64,000 bases of DNA from Candidatus Marinacidobacterales bacterium (lineage in GTDB: Bacteria; Acidobacteriota; Vicinamibacteria; Marinacidobacterales; DATDRI01). The notes under the pieces were generated by a model, which worked only from the letters and a program-made list of their open reading frames with translations, made no database searches and was not told the DNA's origin. The translations under genes and the position numbers were made by a program. Location of the stretch: NCBI GenBank assembly GCA_965219415.1, contig CBDCNP010000002.1, forward strand, positions 1,632,001-1,696,000, written 5' to 3'. Shown here in pieces: positions 24,513-63,087 of this stretch (positions within the stretch are counted from its first letter, which is position 1; each line of letters begins with the position of its first letter).

Positions 24513-25411
24513 GTTTTGTTCACTCTGCGAACCAGCGTTGCCATGAGTGAAGAAAGGTGGGCCTGGTGTCCATCCTCGCCAAGTCTCACCCGCCCCTTCA
24601 TCAGTTTGTGTTCACCGAGCTGTTCGAAAAGAGTGGCGGCACCGACGCCGTGAATCGTCAACCGTTCGTACTCTGCGCCTCCGGACATTGCTGGTAGTCG
24701 GGTCAGTTCATCCATGATTCGGTTGCTTTCCGCCCCGCCGACTAGCTTCACGCGGATGTCGATCAACTCTCCCCCACGGAAAACCGAAAGGGAGTAGTGG
24801 CCGGGATAGAGTTGAACGTGTACTTGCATGCGTGCCGAGGATTCTTCTCCTCCCCGGCCGTTTTCCCGCTCGCCACCCACCTCCTGGGACCAATCCGGAA
24901 TTCTAATGAGACTCGCACCGTCGACCCAGGAGACGCGGCAGCCGACCGCCTCGACCGCTCCCTCGTATTGGCGGAGTACCGCTCCCCGGACGGCGGCGAA
25001 GAGCACCCACCTGGACCCACCGCGCCAGGTGTCGAAGACGGCCTCGTGGCTCGCGTACGGTAACCGCGAGGCGACATTCGCCAGCATCTGGACCGGCTTG
25101 GTGCGCTTCGCAACGGGTAGAGCGAAGGCACGGACCGCCAAATCCGAGAGGATGAGGGACAACCCCGCCCCCTGACATTCCACCTCGCCCAAGGCCTCGC
25201 CGGTAATACGGGCCAAGCCGGACACGGATTGGACGTTCGGTTCGGCGGGGGACGTGGAAACCAGATCGGCAGGAAACGGGCGCTCTGCTGTATCGACCAC
25301 CACCCAATCGCGCCCCCACGATGCCAGTCGGGCGGCGAAAACAGATCGCTCTCCGAACGCAAGAGCGTATCGCGTCCGCCTGCCTTTGAGACCAGAGACC
25401 CCGTTAACCAT
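24509..25411 (-). CDS. Divergent PilM/GspL-like cytoplasmic protein
   Basis: First gene of the coupled block; LSD..VR, RLPY and AAV...VL.QYE..VEAVG. Start uncertain. Confidence 0.55.
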   Translation of the reverse strand: MVNGVSGLKGRRTRYALAFGERSVFAARLASWGRDWVVVDTAERPFPADLVSTSPAEPNVQSVSGLARITGEALGEVECQGAGLSLILSDLAVRAFALPVAKRTKPVQMLANVASRLPYASHEAVFDTWRGGSRWVLFAAVRGAVLRQYEGAVEAVGCRVSWVDGASLIRIPDWSQEVGGERENGRGGEESSARMQVHVQLYPGHYSLSVFRGGELIDIRVKLVGGAESNRIMDELTRLPAMSGGAEYERLTIHGVGAATLFEQLGEHKLMKGRVRLGEDGHQAHLSSLMATLVRRVNKT

Positions 25412-25507
25412 CTCGTCCGGTTGATTATAACCCACTCAAATCTGGTCTCGCGGCGGCGCAGCTAACACCTTCTCGCCGCTGCGCTTGTCCCGGGACGCGC
25501 GACGGCG

Positions 25508-25537
25508 TTGCACGAAAAAACACGCCGGTGATATAAT
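25508..25537 (+). promoter_or_regulatory. Strong sigma70 promoter with extended -10
   Basis: TTGCAC-18-TATAAT with TG-N immediately before the -10. Confidence 0.8.
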
Positions 25538-25541
25538 CGCC

Positions 25542-25659
25542 GCCCGTCCAGGGGTCCCTCGAGACCGACGGCCTCGTGGAATCTCCGGCCGCGACCCGAA
25601 CCATTCGGGTCCAAGGAGCTCAAGGTTGATCCGCAGCCTGGTATGACGGGCCGGTTTTT
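25542..25659 (+). ncRNA. Candidate structured RNA / leader upstream of EF-G2
   Basis: 5' GCCCGTC-CAGG pairs with 3' CCTG-GTAT-GACGGGC. Two inner hairpins; a T5 tract follows. Confidence 0.55.
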
Positions 25660-25685
25660 CCGAGATATTGTAAAACGGAGGGGCG

Positions 25686-27776
25686 ATGAAGACCTACGAA
25701 ACCGCCAACATCAGGAATATTGCTATCGTCGGCCATGGAGGCTCGGGAAAAACCTCCCTAACCTCTGCCATGCTCTTCGATTCCGGTACGGTCAACCGTA
25801 TGGGAAAAGTCGAGGAGGGTAACACCGTTACCGACTTCGACCCCGACGAGATCGAACGCCAGATCAGCCTCTCCACCGGCCTGGCACACTGCGAGTGGCA
25901 CAAGGCCAAAATCAATATCTTGGACACGCCGGGTTATGGCAACTTCATCAATGAGGCGCGTGCCGCATTGCACGTCGCGGATACCGCCGTGGTCACCGTC
26001 TGCGCGGTGGCCGGGGTTGAGGTCCAAACCGAGAAGGTTTGGCAGTTTGCCGAAGAGTTCGGTCTGCCCCGCGTTCTGGTAATCAATCGGCTGGACCGAG
26101 AACGAGCAAGCTTCGAAAGAAGTCTCGGCTCGATACAACAATCTTTTGGGCGTACTGCGGTTCCGATACAACTACCAATGGGCGAAGAGAAGGACTTTCG
26201 CGGCGTCATCGATCTCCTTCGGATGAAGGCTCTCGTCTCGAGCGGAGACGAGAAAGGCTCATACGAAGAGCAGGATATTCCCGAGGACATGAAAGGCACG
26301 GCGAACGACGCCCGCAACGCGCTGACCGAGATGATTGCGGAAGGTGACGATGCGCTCATGGAAAAATTCTTCGAGGCGGGCGAGTTGACTCAAGACGAGT
26401 TCACGAACGGGTTAAAAGCCGGCCTTCTGGCGGGCCGGATCTTCCCGGTGCTAGCGGTGTCGGCGACTCACAACATTGGCGTCCAAACGCTGTTGGATCA
26501 CGTGACGGACCTCGCGCCGTCCCCGGAGGCTCGCGGAGAAGTGAAAGGAAAAGATCCCTCGAATGGAGACGAGATTACCCGCAATCCCTCAGCCGATGAT
26601 CCAACTTCGGTCTTCGTCTTCAAGACCATTGCCGACCCTTACGCGGGACGCATCACCTTGTTTCGCGTTATGAGCGGCGTCTTCAAACCGGACACCGCCT
26701 ACTCGAACGCCGGCAGGGAGTTGACGGAGCGGGTCGGTGCCTTGTCGCTGCTTCAAGGCAAGAACCCGGAGTCGATCTCCGAGATCACCGCCGGGGATCT
26801 CGGCGCCGTCATGAAACTGAAAGAAACGCGCACCGGGGATACGCTGAGCGATAAAGCGCACCCCATCGTGTACGACCCGATTTCTACACCTGAACCGGTC
26901 ATCAGTTTCGCCATCGAGCCCAAGTCGCGAGGTGACGAGGAGAAGATCAGTCAAGCCCTGCAGCGGTTGGTAGAGGAAGATCCGATTCTCCAATACCACC
27001 GCGATGCCAACACCAGCGAGTTGATCCTCTCCGGCACCGGCCAGCTCCACATCGAGGTCGTGGTCGCACGGTTGAAGAAAAAGTTCGGTGTAGAAGTGGA
27101 CGTACACCCACCGAAGGTACCGTACCGAGAGACGATCACCGCCAGCGCCGAGGCCCACGGCCGACACAAGAAGCAAACCGGCGGACATGGGCAGTTCGCC
27201 GACTGCTGGGTCCGCTTCGAGCCCCTGGACGGTGGCGCTGAGTTCGAGTTCGCGAACGAAATCTTCGGTGGATCAATCCCCAAGCAGTACATCCCGGCCG
27301 TAGAAAAGGGGATCCAAGAAGCGCGGATGAGGGGGTACGTGGCGGGATTCCCGATGGTCAACTTCAAGGCCACCGTCTACGACGGCAAGTACCACGCCGT
27401 CGATTCTTCGGAGCTCGCCTTCAAGATCGCCGGTTCACTGGCCTTCAAAGAGGCCATGCCCACGTGCCGCCCGACTTTGCTGGAGCCGATCATGAACGTC
27501 GCCATCTCCGTGCCCGACGACACTACCGGAGACGTGCTGGGCGACCTGAACTCGCGCCGCGGTCGTACACAGGGAATGGACAAGAAAGGCTCGCAGACCA
27601 TGATCAAGGCCCAGGTGCCGATGGCGGAGATGCTCTCCTATGAACCAACCCTGACTTCTATGACGGGGGGCCGAGGGGACTTCCACATGGAGTTCGCCCG
27701 CTACGACGAAGTGCCGACGCACTTACGCCAGAAGCTGATCGAGTCGTTGAAATCAGAAAAAGAGGAGGCGAAGTAA
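25686..27776 (+). CDS. Elongation factor G paralogue (EF-G2 type)
   Basis: GHGGSGKT, DTPG, NRLD and KKQTGGHGQF motifs; full five-domain length; divergent from fusA. Confidence 0.92.
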   Translation: MKTYETANIRNIAIVGHGGSGKTSLTSAMLFDSGTVNRMGKVEEGNTVTDFDPDEIERQISLSTGLAHCEWHKAKINILDTPGYGNFINEARAALHVADTAVVTVCAVAGVEVQTEKVWQFAEEFGLPRVLVINRLDRERASFERSLGSIQQSFGRTAVPIQLPMGEEKDFRGVIDLLRMKALVSSGDEKGSYEEQDIPEDMKGTANDARNALTEMIAEGDDALMEKFFEAGELTQDEFTNGLKAGLLAGRIFPVLAVSATHNIGVQTLLDHVTDLAPSPEARGEVKGKDPSNGDEITRNPSADDPTSVFVFKTIADPYAGRITLFRVMSGVFKPDTAYSNAGRELTERVGALSLLQGKNPESISEITAGDLGAVMKLKETRTGDTLSDKAHPIVYDPISTPEPVISFAIEPKSRGDEEKISQALQRLVEEDPILQYHRDANTSELILSGTGQLHIEVVVARLKKKFGVEVDVHPPKVPYRETITASAEAHGRHKKQTGGHGQFADCWVRFEPLDGGAEFEFANEIFGGSIPKQYIPAVEKGIQEARMRGYVAGFPMVNFKATVYDGKYHAVDSSELAFKIAGSLAFKEAMPTCRPTLLEPIMNVAISVPDDTTGDVLGDLNSRRGRTQGMDKKGSQTMIKAQVPMAEMLSYEPTLTSMTGGRGDFHMEFARYDEVPTHLRQKLIESLKSEKEEAK

Positions 27777-43977: not shown

Positions 43978-45177
43978 TTACTCGATGATATCGGTGATGG
44001 TGCCGGCACCCACCGTACGACCGCCTTCGCGAATCGCGAGTCGCAGCCCCTTCTCCATCGCGATGGGCGTGATCATCTCGATCGTCAAATTCGTGTTGTC
44101 ACCCGGCATGACCATCTCCACTCCACTCGACATCGTCGCCACTCCCGTCACGTCCGTCGTACGAAAATAAAACTGCGGACGATATCCAGTGAAAAACGGC
44201 GTGTGACGTCCTCCCTCTTCTTTCGTCAGGACGTAGACTTCACCCTTGAACTTCGTGTGCGGCGTGATCGAACCCGGCTTCGCAAGCACCATGCCTCGCT
44301 CCACTTCGTCTTTCTCCGTCCCGCGAAGCAATACTCCGATGTTGTCTCCCGCCATTCCTTCGTCCAGGAGCTTCTTGAACATCTCCACTCCAGTCACTAT
44401 CCGCTTTCGCGTCTCCTGGATTCCAACGATCTCAAGCTCTTCACTCACCTTCACCTTGCCGCGGTCCACACGACCCGTCACTACCGTCCCACGACCAGAA
44501 ATAGAGAACACATCCTCGATCGGCATCAGGAACGGCTTGTCGATGTCTCGCTCCGGTAGCGGAACATACTCATCGAGAGCCGCCATCAAGTCCATAATCG
44601 CCTTGCTCTCTTCCGCCTTCGGATCGCCGCTTCCCTCCAACGCCTTCAGTGCACTTCCACGCACGATTGGGATGTCGTCGCCAGGAAACTCGTACTGCGA
44701 CAATAACTCCCGCACCTCAAGCTCCACCAAGTCCAATAGCTCTGGATCGTCCACCGCATCCGTCTTGTTCAAAAACACCACGATGTACGGCACTCCAACC
44801 TGACGCGCCAACAAAATGTGCTCGCGAGTCTGCGGCATCGGTCCGTCCGCCGCCGAAACCACCAGGATCGCTCCATCCATCTGCGCCGCTCCCGTTATCA
44901 TGTTCTTCACATAATCCGCGTGACCCGGGCAGTCTACGTGCGCGTAGTGACGGTTATCCGTCGTGTACTCAACGTGCGCCGTCGCGATCGTGATCCCTCG
45001 CTCTCGCTCCTCTGGTGCGTTGTCGATCGAGTCGAAGCTCCGGAACGACACCTTGTCGTCCATGCTGTGCAGGATCTTCGTTATCGCCGCCGTCAACGTC
45101 GTCTTCCCGTGGTCCACGTGTCCTATCGTGCCAACGTTTACATGCGGCTTACTTCGATCAAATTTCTCCTTCGCCAT
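43978..45177 (-). CDS. tuf: Elongation factor Tu (str-operon copy)
   Basis: GHVDHGKTT and [11 protein letters not shown] motifs. Confidence 0.99.
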
Positions 45178-45243
45178 GACGACGCAAATCGCTCCTTACT
45201 TGGCCTTCTTAGTCATCCTTTAACGCGGATTGGGCTGGGGCAC

Positions 45244-47322
45244 CTAACGCCCTTGCACCTTGGCCACAACTTCCTCGCCCACTTGCTTGGGCGCTTCCTG
45301 ATACTCTGCGAAGTGCATCGTGTAGGTGGCCCGTCCTTGGGTAGCGGAGCGAAGATCGGTGGCGTAGCCAAACATTTCCGCTAGGGGTACGTTGGCACCG
45401 ATGATCTGCGTATTGCCCCGAGCGGTCATGCCGGTCACGCGACCGCGGCGGGAATTGAGATCGTTGATGACCTCGCCCATATAATCCTCCGGGACCACGA
45501 CTTCGACCTGCATGATTGGCTCGAGAAGGACCGGAGCGGCAGCACGCGCCGCCTCCTTGAAAGCCATGGAGCCAGCTATCTTGAACGCCATCTCCGAGCT
45601 ATCCACCTCGTGGTAGGAACCGTCGTAGAGGCTCACTTTGACATCCACCATCGGATAGCCGGCGAGGATGCCATGCTCCATCGCTTCCACGATCCCTGTC
45701 TGGATCGACGAGATGTACTCGCGCGAAATGGAGCCCCCGCGAATATCGTTGGAGAACTCGAACTTCTCACCCGGAAACGGTTCGATCTCGATCTTGACGT
45801 GGCCGAACTGGCCACGGCCTCCCGTCTGCCGGATATAGCGGCCTTCCGCTTTGGCGTTCTTACGAATCGTCTCTTTATAAGCGACCTGCGGCTTGCCGAC
45901 GTTGGCCGCCACGTTGAATTCGCGGAGCAGACGGTCGACGACGATCTCGAGATGAAGCTCGCCCATACCACTAATGATGGTTTGGCTTGTCTCCGGATCA
46001 TTGAAAACCTTGAAGGTCGGATCCTCCTGTGTGAGCTTGCCCAAAGCCAGTCCTAGCTTTTCCTGATCGACCTTGGTCTTGGGCTCGATGACCACCGAGA
46101 TAACCGGCTCGGGAAACTCCATCGACTCCAGTACGACGGGATTGTTCTGGTCGCAGATCGTGTCGCCGGTTTGGACATTTTTCAGGCCGACCGCAGCGGC
46201 AATGTCACCCGCATAGACTTCCTTTATGTCCTCACGCTTGTTCGCGTGCATCTTGAGGAGTCGCCCTATGCGCTCACGGTTATCGCGCGTCGCATTGAGG
46301 ACATAGGAGCCACTTTTCAGAACTCCTGAGTACACGCGGAAAAAAGCCAACTGCCCGACGAAGGGGTCGGTGAGAATCTTGAACACCAAACCAGAGAAAG
46401 GGGCCTCGTCACTAGACGCCCTCTCCACTTCCTCGTCCTTTCCCGGATCCATGCCTATGATCGGCGGTACATCGACGGGGGAGGGGAGGAGGTCAATGAC
46501 CGCGTCCAGCAGCGGCTGAATGCCCTTGTTCTTGAAGGCGGAGCCGCACAAAACCGGCACGATCTCGAGACCGATGGTACCCTTGCGCAGGGCGGCCCGG
46601 ATCTCATCCTCGGAGGCGGTCTTTCCCTCGATGTAGCGTTCCATTAGTTGGTCGTCGATTTCGCTCACTGCCTCGATAAGCTTGTCCCGCGCGGCCTTGG
46701 CGGCCTCAATCTGATCCTCCGGTATCTCTTCCACGGTGTACTCTGCACCGAGTGTCTCGTCGCGATACCGCACAGCCTTCATGCTGATGAGGTCGATGAC
46801 CCCCACGAAGTTCTCTTCGGTCCCGATGGGTAGCTGGATTGGAACCGCGTTGGCCGCCAGCCGCGTCCTCATCATCTCGACCGCCCGCTCGAAGTCAGCC
46901 CCCGTACGGTCCATCTTGTTAACGAGTGCAATGCGCGGTACCTGGTACCGATCCGCCTGCCGCCAGACCGTCTCCGACTGGGGCTCGACCCCACCTACGG
47001 CACAGAAAACAGCGATCGCCCCGTCCAGCACCCTCAAGGACCGCTCCACCTCTGCGGTGAAGTCGACGTGGCCGGGGGTATCGATAATGTTGATCCGGTA
47101 GTCTCGCCAGAAGCTGGTGGTAGCAGCCGAGGTAATAGTGATACCCCTTTCCTGCTCCTGCTCCATCCAGTCCATGGTGGCCGTACCCTCGTGCACTTCA
47201 CCGAGCTTGTGCGTAATGCCGGTGTAGTACAGGACGCGCTCAGTGGTAGTCGTCTTCCCGGCATCGATGTGCGCCATGATGCCGATGTTGCGCGTCTTGG
47301 TTAAGGGAACTTCTCCAGGCAT
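45244..47322 (-). CDS. fusA: Elongation factor G (canonical)
   Basis: [14 protein letters not shown] and NKMD motifs. Confidence 0.99.
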
Positions 47323-47436
47323 AGGACACTACTTCTCTAGAATCGGATATCCCGTTTCTGGCCTCAAAAGCCCGTTCGCCGCCCGGATTCGGGAGGTCCC
47401 GACGACACCGAGCTCTAAATGTTTCCGGTCCGCTGG

Positions 47437-47907
47437 CTACCAGCGGTAGTGAGCAAAGGCCTTGTTAGCCTCTGCCATCCGGTGGGTGTCTTCTCTTTTC
47501 TTAACTGCGCCGCCTCGATTATTGGCGGCGTCAAGCAACTCGCCAGCCAACTTCTCGATCATCGTCTTGTCCGGCCGGTTGCGCGCGTGATTCACGAGCC
47601 AGCGCAGGGAAAGCGACGTCCGCCGCTCGATTCTCACCTCCACGGGGACCTGGTAGTTGCTCCCTCCCACGCGGCGGCTCTTTACTTCGAGCGCAGGCCT
47701 CACGTTATCGACCGCCTTCTTGAAGAGCTTGAGCGGATCGTCTTGCCCGCGCTCACGCATCTTGTCGAATGCGCGATAAACAATCGTCTCGGCGGTGCTC
47801 TTCTTGCCCTCCTTCATCACGACATTGATGAACTTCGAGACAAGCACACTGTTGTAGAGTGCATCCGCGTTGACTTCAGGCTTCGGTACTTCTCTTCGCC
47901 TAGGCAT
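47437..47907 (-). CDS. rpsG: 30S ribosomal protein S7
   Basis: [15 protein letters not shown] motif. Confidence 0.98.
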
Positions 47908-47948
47908 TGGCCGAAACTCTCAATACTTTCTTAGCCGACTTAGCCGGC

Positions 47949-48323
47949 TTACGCTTTGGGCCGTTTGGCACCGTATTTTGAACGACCGTTCTTCCTACCC
48001 TGAACGCCAACTGCGTCCAGTGCGCCACGCACAACGTGGTAGCGAACTCCGGGGAGATCCTTCACGCGGCCGCCGCGAATCAAGACGATCGAGTGCTCCT
48101 GAAGGTTATGCCCGATCCCGGGAATGTACGTCGTCACTTCGATTCCGTTCGTTAGTCGCACCCTCGCTACCTTCCGAAGGGCCGAGTTCGGCTTCTTGGG
48201 AGTCGAGATAAAAACGCGGACACACACTCCGCGCTTTTGCGGACTACCCTGAAGTGCCGGGCTGTCGGTCTTCGAGCTCAGCTTCTTACGGCCCTTACGG
48301 ACCAGCTGACTGATTGTTGGCAA
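47949..48323 (-). CDS. rpsL: 30S ribosomal protein S12
   Basis: [10 protein letters not shown] and [10 protein letters not shown] motifs; TTG start. Confidence 0.98.
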
Positions 48324-60727: not shown

Positions 60728-60803
60728 TGGCAGGCCAGGAGGGACTCGAACCCCCAGCCCCCGGTTTTGGAGACCGGTGCTCTACCAATTGAGCTACTGG
60801 CCT
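60728..60803 (-). tRNA. tRNA-Trp(CCA)
   Basis: 76-nt cloverleaf with encoded CCA end. Confidence 0.97.
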
Positions 60804-60842
60804 ACGGCTTGCCCCCACAGGGATACCAGGCCGCCTCCTCAC

Positions 60843-60995
60843 TTATTTCGTTTCCCGATGCGATGTGTGTATCCGGCAGAAGCGGCAGTACTTCTTAAAC
60901 TCCAAACGCTCGGTAGTCTTCTTCTTGTTCCGTGTAGTCGAGTAGTTCCGCCTCTTGCAGTCGGCACATGCTAGAGTCACGATATCCCGCGCCAT
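60843..60995 (-). CDS. rpmG: 50S ribosomal protein L33
   Basis: Hand translation [50 protein letters not shown]. Confidence 0.97.
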
Positions 60996-61003
60996 GGCTT
61001 CAC

Positions 61004-62203
61004 CTACTCGATGATATCGGTGATGGTGCCGGCACCCACCGTACGACCGCCTTCGCGAATCGCGAATCGCAGCCCCTTCTCCATTGCGATGGGCGTGATC
61101 ATCTCGATCGTCAAATTCGTGTTGTCACCCGGCATGACCATCTCCACTCCACTCGACATCGTCGCCACTCCCGTCACGTCCGTCGTACGAAAATAAAACT
61201 GCGGACGATATCCAGTGAAAAACGGCGTGTGACGTCCTCCCTCTTCTTTCGTCAGGACGTAGACTTCACCCTTGAACTTCGTGTGCGGCGTGATCGAACC
61301 CGGCTTCGCAAGCACCATGCCTCGCTCCACTTCGTCTTTCTCCGTCCCGCGAAGCAATACTCCGATGTTGTCTCCCGCCATTCCTTCGTCCAGGAGCTTC
61401 TTGAACATCTCCACTCCAGTCACTATCCGCTTTCGCGTCTCCTGGATTCCAACGATCTCAAGCTCTTCACTCACCTTCACCTTGCCGCGGTCCACACGAC
61501 CCGTCACTACCGTCCCACGACCAGAAATAGAGAACACATCCTCGATCGGCATCAGGAACGGCTTGTCGATGTCTCGCTCCGGTAGCGGAACATACTCATC
61601 GAGAGCCGCCATCAAGTCCATAATCGCCTTGCTCTCTTCCGCCTTCGGATCGCCGCTTCCCTCCAACGCCTTCAGTGCACTTCCACGCACGATTGGGATG
61701 TCGTCGCCAGGAAACTCGTACTGCGACAATAACTCCCGCACCTCAAGCTCCACCAAGTCCAATAGCTCTGGATCGTCCACCGCATCCGTCTTGTTCAAAA
61801 ACACCACGATGTACGGCACTCCAACCTGACGCGCCAACAAAATGTGCTCGCGAGTCTGCGGCATCGGTCCGTCCGCCGCCGAAACCACCAGGATCGCTCC
61901 ATCCATCTGCGCCGCTCCCGTTATCATGTTCTTCACATAATCCGCGTGACCCGGGCAGTCTACGTGCGCGTAGTGACGGTTATCCGTCGTGTACTCAACG
62001 TGCGCCGTCGCGATCGTGATCCCTCGCTCTCGCTCCTCTGGTGCGTTGTCGATCGAGTCGAAGCTCCGGAACGACACCTTGTCGTCCATGCTGTGCAGGA
62101 TCTTCGTTATCGCCGCCGTCAACGTCGTCTTCCCGTGGTCCACGTGTCCTATCGTGCCAACGTTTACATGCGGCTTACTTCGATCAAATTTCTCCTTCGC
62201 CAT
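61004..62203 (-). CDS. tuf: Elongation factor Tu (tRNA-linked copy)
   Basis: Near-identical to 43978-45177. Confidence 0.99.
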
Positions 62204-62521
62204 GGCTATTCTCCAATGAGTTCGGTTTGATGAGTGTTCTTCACTTTGCGGACCTGGTTTGCGCCAGGGCTTCTCTCCTCGAGACTCGCTAGCCCGTGCG
62301 TCTCGCTTTCCCCCGGGCTGGATGCCCCGGTGACCGCGACCGACGCCTGGCTACTTCCGACAATGGCAACCGGCGGCTGGCTAGCGTTATTACTAGCAAC
62401 TTTCACTTTTGACGCCAGAAACGTGACAGCACTCCGACGGTTCGGCGTCCCGCAGAGCCTGGGAGCCTTAGTCCGCCAGGTTCGCGGCAAGTTACTAAGC
62501 GTCAGTCCTATGAAAACGTTA

Positions 62522-62596
<75 letters not shown>

Positions 62597-62660
62597 CCGA
62601 TTTCCTTGCTTCTTATCCCTCGTCGGCCCCTGCCAACTCGAAGCCCAACGTCTTCGATAA

Positions 62661-62736
62661 TGGAGCGGGAGACGGGACTCGGACCCGCGACCCTCAGCTT
62701 GGAAGGCTGATGCTCTACCAACTGAGCTACTCCCGC
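62661..62736 (-). tRNA. tRNA-Gly(TCC)
   Basis: 76-nt cloverleaf; T-loop reads TCCGA instead of TTCGA. Confidence 0.95.
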
Positions 62737-62845
62737 CCTGGCAAGTCGAATCGGCCGGCCTTCTCGAGCTCTGGGGGCCTCGATCGGCTCTTGCATCGAT
62801 TTCGGCAATTTCACCGGGCTCAGCAATTTCACCAAGCGGAGGTTC

Positions 62846-62932
62846 TGGTGGAGAGGGGAGGATTCGAACCTCCGAAGGCCTGAGGCCGGCAGATTTACAG
62901 TCTGCAGCGTTTGACCGCTTCGCTACCTCTCC
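62846..62932 (-). tRNA. tRNA-Tyr(GTA)
   Basis: 87 nt with long variable arm and CCA end. Confidence 0.97.
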
Positions 62933-63012
62933 GCCTATGACATGTAGCGAGTGAATCGAGCCTTGGGCAACTATGGTCGGGTCGGGGATTATCACTTTAA
63001 AGTGCCTCGAAC

Positions 63013-63087
63013 TGGAGCTGGCGAAGGGATTTGAACCCCCGACCCGCTGATTACAAATCAGCTGCTCTACCACTGAGCTACGCCAGC
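63013..63087 (-). tRNA. tRNA-Thr(TGT)
   Basis: 75-nt cloverleaf with CCA end. Confidence 0.97.

Follow-up and report, generated by a model that had tools for sequence, protein, structure and literature searches.

What does the long untranslated stretch ahead of a second elongation factor G (EF-G) gene do in Candidatus Marinacidobacterales, an uncultured acidobacterial order? A preliminary description of this locus had read it as either a discrete small RNA (sRNA) or an attenuating leader. The locus was analyzed within the window, the whole 64,000-nucleotide stretch of DNA that holds it, from a soil or sediment acidobacterium of the class Vicinamibacteria, where the gap at 25436 to 25685 is intergenic with two divergent genes on either side. 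The untranslated leader of the EF-G paralogue takes up roughly 145 bases. In the list of features, leaders of the window's own type are called type A.

Other side of the gap from the EF-G paralogue, minus strand: open reading frame of 308 amino acids, without a Pfam or NCBIfam match.
25508 to 25513, plus strand: −35-like hexamer TTGCAC, matching TTGACA at three of six positions.
25529 to 25537, plus strand: extended −10 element, TGATATAAT, a perfect match, with an 18-nt spacer from TTGCAC.
25542 to 25546, plus strand: predicted range of the transcription start, at the usual distance of 5 to 9 nt from the −10 element.
25542 to 25552, plus strand: 5′ strand of the outer helix, composed of P1 GCCCGTC (25542 to 25548) and CAGG (25549 to 25552), from the window sequence and fold.
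25569 to 25591, plus strand: hairpin 1, CGGCC ... GGCCG, from the window sequence and the seven-leader alignment.
25593 to 25611, plus strand: hairpin 2, GACCCGAA-CCA-TTCGGGTC, in both the minimum free energy (MFE) and centroid folds when the Shine-Dalgarno (SD) sequence is left out.
25612 to 25636, plus strand: 3′ segment with conserved blocks (TCAA..., ATCC) that are alignable in relatives; its partner in the preliminary description was 25553 to 25563.
25637 to 25651, plus strand: 3′ strand of the outer helix, composed of CCTG (25637 to 25640), the bulge GTAT (25641 to 25644), and GACGGGC (25645 to 25651), from sequence, fold, and alignment.
25655 to 25659, plus strand: lineage-specific T5 tract, 26 nt 5′ of the ATG and followed by CC.
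25660 to 25676, plus strand: A/U-rich spacer separating the SD sequence from the folded domain.
25677 to 25681, plus strand: SD sequence GGAGG, within a block, ACGGAGGGGCGATG, that is almost invariant in type-A leaders.
25686 to 27776, plus strand: EF-G paralogue of 696 amino acids, EF-G2-like (DTPGY), with its ATG at 25686.

Every element reported in the preliminary description is present where it placed it, among them TTGCAC, the 18-nt spacer, and the extended −10 element; the pairing of GCCCGTC-CAGG with CCTG-GTAT-GACGGGC; both hairpins; and the T5 tract. A GTCCA repeat occurs at 25546 to 25550 and again at 25609 to 25613. On the opposite strand, a TATAAT running from 25429 down to 25424 lies 12 nt upstream of an in-frame ATG at 25411 (region 25409 to 25430), and the divergent 308-amino-acid frame probably starts at this ATG on an almost leaderless mRNA; one same-genus genome (G001) is arranged likewise.

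The gene downstream of the leader had been called EF-G2, and it is indeed a second EF-G beside the fusA of the str operon. Canonical fusA lies in rpsL-rpsG-fusA-tuf on the minus strand (43981 to 48323) and scores 1159 bits on TIGR00484, compared to 725 bits for the paralogue, which reaches 969.6 bits on NF009381 "elongation factor G" (cut-off 583) and falls under both NCBIfam EF-G2 cut-offs (651.7 versus 890 for NF009377, 633.8 versus 1000 for NF058620). The two proteins share 44% identity, and the paralogue has GHGGSGKT and DTPGY at the positions of AHIDAGKT and DTPGH in canonical EF-G (residues 16 to 23 and 80 to 84). Among 121 related loci, a count that includes several records fetched twice, none had His at the catalytic position (89 Tyr, 9 Phe, 9 Ser, 7 Asp, 5 Glu, and 2 Gln). 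Because these loci, from Acidobacteriota, Nitrospinota, Deltaproteobacteria-type, Atribacterota, and Clostridia records, all lack the catalytic His, the whole paralogue family is probably GTPase deficient, by analogy with mycobacterial EF-G2. According to the available part of one preprint, mycobacterial EF-G2 carries the same His-to-Tyr change, and an EF-G1 H88Y mutant almost wholly loses ribosome-dependent GTPase activity (bioRxiv 10.64898/2026.05.25.727771), which together make "EF-G2" a fair functional label by analogy. In the portions available of two sources, EF-G2-type factors without the catalytic His are described as slowing or sustaining translation in stressed mycobacteria and Bacteroides (bioRxiv 10.64898/2026.05.25.727771; PMC10294740). 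An orthologue was present in 41 of 41 relatives, and in at least 28 of these 41 genomes of the order, by a coordinate count, a single contig holds both it and fusA, 17.6 to 22 kb apart. In the window (25686 to 47322) and in relatives, the paralogue and rplQ-rpoA converge on each other at the distal end of the cluster of ribosomal genes.

The promoter ahead of this gene had been described as strong. That description holds for the perfect extended −10 element, where promoter strength resides, and not for the −35 hexamer, whose three matches out of six explain the absence of the site from the promoter-scan list. The motif TGnTATAAT occurs only 36 times on both strands of the entire 8.05-Mb genome (59% G+C), and TTG-N17-19-TGnTATAAT occurs at four sites, one of which is the EF-G2 leader promoter. 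The other three are at C1:860688 (plus), C2:124177 (minus), and C3:1812488 (minus). Upstream of the orthologue, TGnTA[TC][AT]AT was found at 23 of 30 loci, with a G+C-rich discriminator downstream; by family, these were eight of eight loci in f1, 15 of 16 in f2, and none of six in f3, where TGGTAGGAT takes the place of this −10 element. Loci of family f1 retain TTGCAC, TTGCGC, or TTGCAA at −35. Because the predicted start range lies within the 5′ strand of P1, this strand is perhaps partly untranscribed; the seventh base past the −10 element, the expected +1, is the first G of P1 in the type-A leaders of G002, G001, and G006.

How far the leader extends beyond this genome was assessed using upstream regions of orthologues (30 loci from relatives, 79 from the genome collection, and 80 from metagenomes), with 65 distinct regions out of 86 extracted after duplicate removal. 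A DNA search with the leader found matches in two same-genus genomes only, plus an extra match in G004 that lies in unrelated sequence. Type-A leaders were recognized in genera g1 (G000, which is the window genome, along with G002 and G001), g5 (G006), and g2 (G003, G007, and the metagenome locus L115), giving an alignment of seven leaders from three lineages; statements about G007 are equally supported by the public record L039, identical over the region used. Alignment z-scores between leaders were 19.6 for G000 and G002, 6.0 for G000 and G006, 8.9 for G006 and G002, and 9.8 to 10.8 for G006 and genus g2. Direct comparison of G000 with g2 was weak (z-scores of 0.9 to 2.3), and homology between the g1 and g2 leaders is therefore drawn through the intermediate G006. 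For the flank of 130 nt preceding the −35 hexamer, z-scores were −2.1 to 3.2, with 4.1 for the pair G000 and G001. Since leaders can be aligned across three genera and the flank upstream of −35 cannot, the leader body is constrained in a way that the adjacent non-coding DNA is not.

Outside these genera, other leaders take its place. Genera g3 and g4 have another leader in common (z-score of 7.0 between them and below 2 to type A), and across the order the sequences downstream of the promoter vary by lineage, with lengths of 33 to 292 nt. A covariance model of the type-A leader, built with the inner rod left out, found matches in 6 of 151 Vicinamibacteria genomes, one in each, belonging to 3 of 76 genera; all six matches are training genomes, and every one sits directly before the EF-G paralogue. 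Applied to 31 other EF-G2 loci, the model gave no credible match, as six matches at E values of 0.94 to 6.3 either aligned little beyond the model ends and SD block or scored below 12 bits. The element is single copy in its own genome. DNA contigs of four public runs contained no variant inside the leader; these runs also contain relatives' contigs with other leader forms, including one short form. By these results, the leader is a narrow-range 5′ untranslated region (UTR) of the EF-G2 gene in three related genera of one Vicinamibacteria family.

This distribution bears directly on the proposal of a discrete sRNA. An independent trans-acting RNA of about 115 nt would fit a promoter with a T tract downstream of it, an arrangement seen only in G000 and G002. 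However, the EF-G2 gene has one visible promoter only, which precedes the orthologue at 23 of the 30 loci and accompanies the gene throughout the order, so an sRNA ending before the gene cannot be the main product of this promoter. The element also occurs once per genome and never elsewhere, and the T tract is not conserved. We therefore give this proposal almost no credence.

The family f3 leader is an example of a form unlike type A. It is about 200 nt long (L050 to L066, L097, and L136), lies downstream of the TGGTAGGAT −10 element, and has a mean column identity of 82% over 17 sequences with energy z-scores of −1.7 to −2.4. Its invariant UCCAG has a predicted partner, some 130 nt distant, in CUGGA of the SD region, and a GAACGAGCCCT unit is present as three repeats in the f3 leaders L063 and L064.

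Whether the type-A leader is structured cannot be read from folding energy in the window sequence alone, where the predicted fold is not beyond chance. A 120-nt stretch folded at −49.3 kcal/mol compared to −46.1 ± 3.9 kcal/mol for shuffled sequences (z-score of −0.83), and 42 of 200 shuffles equaled it. For the G000 leader up to the SD sequence, the z-score was −0.97, with 18 of 100 shuffles reaching the same energy, and G002 and G001 scored +0.58 and +0.35.

When the structure from the preliminary description was placed on the seven-leader alignment, 86.3% of cells were paired, compared to at most 49.7% with slid partners, although the scored structure was derived from one of the alignment's own rows. 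P1 was 97.7% paired across the seven leaders and includes a single change from C-G to U-A. Hairpin 1 was 100% paired and has one position that is G-C in three sequences and A-U in three. The CAGG/CCTG helix was 85.7% paired, with one position appearing as G-C, A-U, and G·U, and the base of hairpin 2 was 90% paired, the G006 equivalent of GACCCGAA-CCA-TTCGGGTC being GGCCCAA-CCAC-TTGGGCC. With three informative lineages and the weak alignment of g2 to G000, compensatory changes are few and partly alignment dependent, so these pairing counts, which come from sequence comparison, are suggestive of a conserved structure. The preliminary description's outer helix and hairpins thus extend to three genera, and two of its parts do not: the T5 tract, discussed below, and the rod CCTCGAG/CTCAAGG. 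The letters of this rod are present, and they include a C·A mismatch. As a helix of 25553 to 25563 with 25619 to 25631, it is the worst kept of all (70% of cells paired, with gaps in most rows), and it was rejected as not retained in relatives.

A natural deletion shows which parts can be lost. In G001, from the same genus as the window, exactly 63 nt are missing between the GTCCA repeats, removing both hairpins. Despite this loss, P1 is kept with a single U·G pair and the EF-G2 gene is intact. The leader core is therefore dispensable. Being the best-kept helix and surviving this deletion, P1 is the best-supported candidate for the part of the leader under selection.

Genus g14 represents a second, independent loss of the leader core. 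Among close relatives in this genus, leaders of 33 nt (L021, L119, L121, and L124) are found alongside leaders of roughly 100 nt (L018, L023, and L123). In the short leaders, the purine-rich 5′ word now stands in the SD position right before the ATG, as TCGAGAGGAC in three of the four and as TAAAGAGGAC in L121.

These losses, energy z-scores near zero, and leader lengths of 33 to 292 nt across the order are all what would be expected if no structure were selected and the leader were a GC-rich spacer whose conserved sequence serves the promoter-proximal region or an unknown DNA-binding factor. We consider this doubtful. Leader bodies can be aligned where flanks cannot, pairing far exceeds that with slid partners, and P1 and both hairpins show compensatory changes.

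The T5 tract raises the possibility of termination within the leader. It is present in two of the seven type-A leaders, G000 and G002. At the same position, G001 has TT; G006, G003, L115, and G007 carry two or three T residues and then CCCC, and the conserved feature 3′ of P1 is TTCC rather than a U run. With only two or three U residues in the other five type-A leaders, a conserved attenuator is unlikely. An attenuator confined to the G000/G002 sub-lineage, in which P1 extended by CCG/CGG or a hairpin at 25636 to 25651 precedes T5 and causes partial termination, would draw on two terminator-like matches at 25636 to 25654 and on a P1 that can be extended to within 0 to 3 nt of T5. We judge it highly improbable, given that 1.2 kb contains three terminator-like sites compared to 1.3 ± 1.2 in shuffles, local stems have five pairs only, the long-range helix encloses about 90 nt, and five of seven homologous leaders are missing T5.

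The leader could also pair with its own ribosome-binding site. Without the SD sequence in the folded stretch, P1 and hairpin 2 are in both the MFE and centroid predictions. With the SD sequence included, the predicted MFE structure drops P1, and the G-rich SD pairs with C-rich 5′ segments; forcing P1 back costs 5.0 to 10.5 kcal/mol over four assumed start sites. The predicted partner of the SD sequence differs from leader to leader. Several of these predictions depend on where transcription begins. If +1 is the sixth base past the −10 element, the 5′-most window is the best or near-best SD partner in seven of seven type-A leaders, with a fraction of better windows of 0.00 to 0.05. Moving +1 to the eighth base weakens this signal, and the fraction becomes 0.34 in G000 and 0.28 in G006. 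A reading of dot-bracket structures suggests that in eight of nine f1 leaders the full-leader MFE joins the SD region to the 5′ end, in folds that contain possibly untranscribed bases right after the −10 element.

Comparison to shuffled leaders tempers this picture. Openness of the SD sequence ranked 25/60 in G000, 34/60 in G002, and 30/60 in G001, so SD occlusion beyond that of shuffled leaders was not found in these three. The SD was more open than in shuffles in G006 and genus g6 (60/60) and in four of five g9/g8 leaders (50 to 53 of 60), with the fifth (g9b) at 45/60. Pairing of the first 8 nt was not enriched over shuffles (43 of 100 reach the G000 value), with the exception of G006 (3 of 100). 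Mutually exclusive pairings are possible in the leader, but no more than in shuffled sequences. A role for the 3′ strand of P1 as an SD decoy was also considered and rejected, as 200 of 200 shuffles reach the G000 value and the signal in g2 is weak (12 to 24 of 200).

The main rival to a constitutive cis role is a regulated translational operator or switch, in which a protein (e.g., EF-G2) or a small molecule binds the hairpin junction and changes how the SD is covered by the P1 5′ strand, CCCTC at 25556 to 25560, or T5-CCG. This model gains from an SD core predicted to be at least 95% paired under all four start-site models, from the 5′-window signal in the seven type-A leaders, and from the apparent 5′-end pairing in f1. 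By analogy with the GTPase-dead factor in the available part of the mycobacterial study, an EF-G that can stall ribosomes would also plausibly need tight control (bioRxiv 10.64898/2026.05.25.727771). Nonetheless, we regard such a switch as unlikely, if worth keeping in view. The SD is no more occluded than in shuffles, the 5′-window signal fades with +1 only two bases on, G002 is without CCCTC, the SD-like decoy is not significant in G000 and weak in g2, the core is deleted in G001, and there is no likeness to rRNA sites.

Searches for known RNA classes also failed to provide an identity. No Rfam 15 family matched the leader at the gathering score, the five matches in the window being tRNAs at 60731 to 63087. 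At an E value of ≤10, the 351 nt from 25400 to 25750 gave three chance matches of 9.8 to 18.1 bits compared to cut-offs of 42 to 70 bits. Neither SRP, 6S, nor Y RNA was among the matches at E ≤ 10, consistent with the earlier decision to leave the element unassigned to these or to a riboswitch class, and ykkC (RF00442) was also missing, so the faint ykkC resemblance once noted is not borne out. The broadly conserved aptamer core with invariant unpaired positions expected of a riboswitch was not seen, as the element is found in 6 of 151 genomes and the core is absent in G001. The leader is probably neither an sRNA, nor a conserved terminator or attenuator, nor a known riboswitch. A full-text literature search retrieved no description of a leader RNA upstream of an EF-G paralogue.

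Two coding possibilities within the leader were rejected. A leader peptide of 17 codons starting at GTG 25576 is kept in G002 only, with two synonymous and four non-synonymous differences. A frame of 43 to 50 codons, running from close to the 5′ end as far as a TGA in overlap with the EF-G2 start codon (ATGA), is closed in G000 and G002; it is open in G006, G003, L115, and G007 (genera g2 and g5; leaders L009, L115, L011/L039, and L010), where changes in the conserved block are mostly non-synonymous and coding bias is absent.

Mimicry of rRNA was likewise sought. The leader compared to its own rRNA operon gave only chance words of 7 to 10 nt, the best being 10 nt at an E value of 0.64. In some family f2 leaders, words of 10 to 11 nt exactly match the EF-G-activating site of the genome's 23S rRNA, the sarcin-ricin loop: CGAGAGGACC in L119, L021, and L124, and AGTACGAGAGG in L047. 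These are absent from the window leader. As the words are purine rich and SD-like and stand at the SD position in 33-nt leaders, they are probably chance matches, and mimicry was rejected.

The explanation we favor, tentatively, is that the leader is a cis-acting 5′ UTR in which P1 serves as a constitutive 5′-end helix that stabilizes or insulates the mRNA; a constitutive role is preferred because P1 is best kept and survives deletion. According to this model, the mRNA would be transcribed from the conserved extended −10 promoter and would begin with a domain closed by P1, built from the first transcribed nucleotides and enclosing two hairpins in the three genera. With P1 occupying the 5′ end, no free single strand would be offered, which could shield the message from 5′-end-dependent decay. 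P1 would also keep the C-rich first nucleotides off the very G-rich ribosome-binding site, GGAGGGGCG, leaving the A/U-rich spacer and SD free to set translation. P1 starts 5 to 7 nt past the −10 element, but the 5′ end of the transcript is a prediction, and 5′-end pairing does not rise above shuffles; consequences for message lifetime or translation are likewise inferred.

A broader scheme for Vicinamibacteria can be imagined, although we consider it a long shot. A conserved near-consensus promoter would drive the GTPase-dead EF-G2 gene, and family-specific, fast-evolving leaders would restrain it through 5′ pyrimidine strands competing for the G-rich ribosome-binding site, with the type-A leader being one such switch, read by EF-G2 or a stress signal. 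If true, an alternative translocase would be under a kind of translational control that is new. As an RNA, the type-A leader is a modest find, with a narrow range, a losable core, and no sign of ligand sensing, and its analysis corrects the earlier reading as sRNA and attenuator. The locus is a concrete handle on the expression of EF-G2-type factors beyond mycobacteria and Bacteroides.

Long bacterial leaders with 5′-terminal stabilizer stem-loops are known, as in 5′ UTRs of the Escherichia coli ompA type. The leader described here has in common with them a predicted 5′-terminal helix, an unstructured A/U-rich stretch, a strong SD sequence, and variable inner parts. It differs in having no sequence relation to them and in that its helix closes a multi-hairpin domain of roughly 100 nt instead of a simple hairpin. 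The autoregulatory leaders of ribosomal-protein and translation-factor operons, among them the ribosomal leaders in Rfam, share a narrow range and the position of a structured 5′ UTR before a translation gene by the ribosomal cluster; the present leader differs in having neither an Rfam match nor a resemblance to rRNA, and its binding partner would be hypothetical. Likeness to ykkC-type riboswitches (including the ppGpp and PRPP subtypes) is limited to short G-rich words, in an element confined to 3 of the 76 genera searched and with a core deleted in one same-genus genome.

At the protein level, the paralogue resembles mycobacterial EF-G2 in the replacement of the DTPGH His by Tyr and in an altered P-loop (GHGGSGKT here), while neither NCBIfam EF-G2 model gives it a score above cut-off; this likeness is one of proteins, as the available part of the mycobacterial study carries no description of a leader (bioRxiv 10.64898/2026.05.25.727771). 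Bacteroides fusA2 (EF-G2) is also an alternative EF-G that stands outside the str operon and is expressed from a promoter of its own (PMC10294740). There, BT4338/Cur controls promoter occupancy during carbon limitation, and a leader RNA is not implicated in the available portion of that source (PMC10294740), whereas the visible features at the present locus are a conserved near-consensus −10 element and a long leader.
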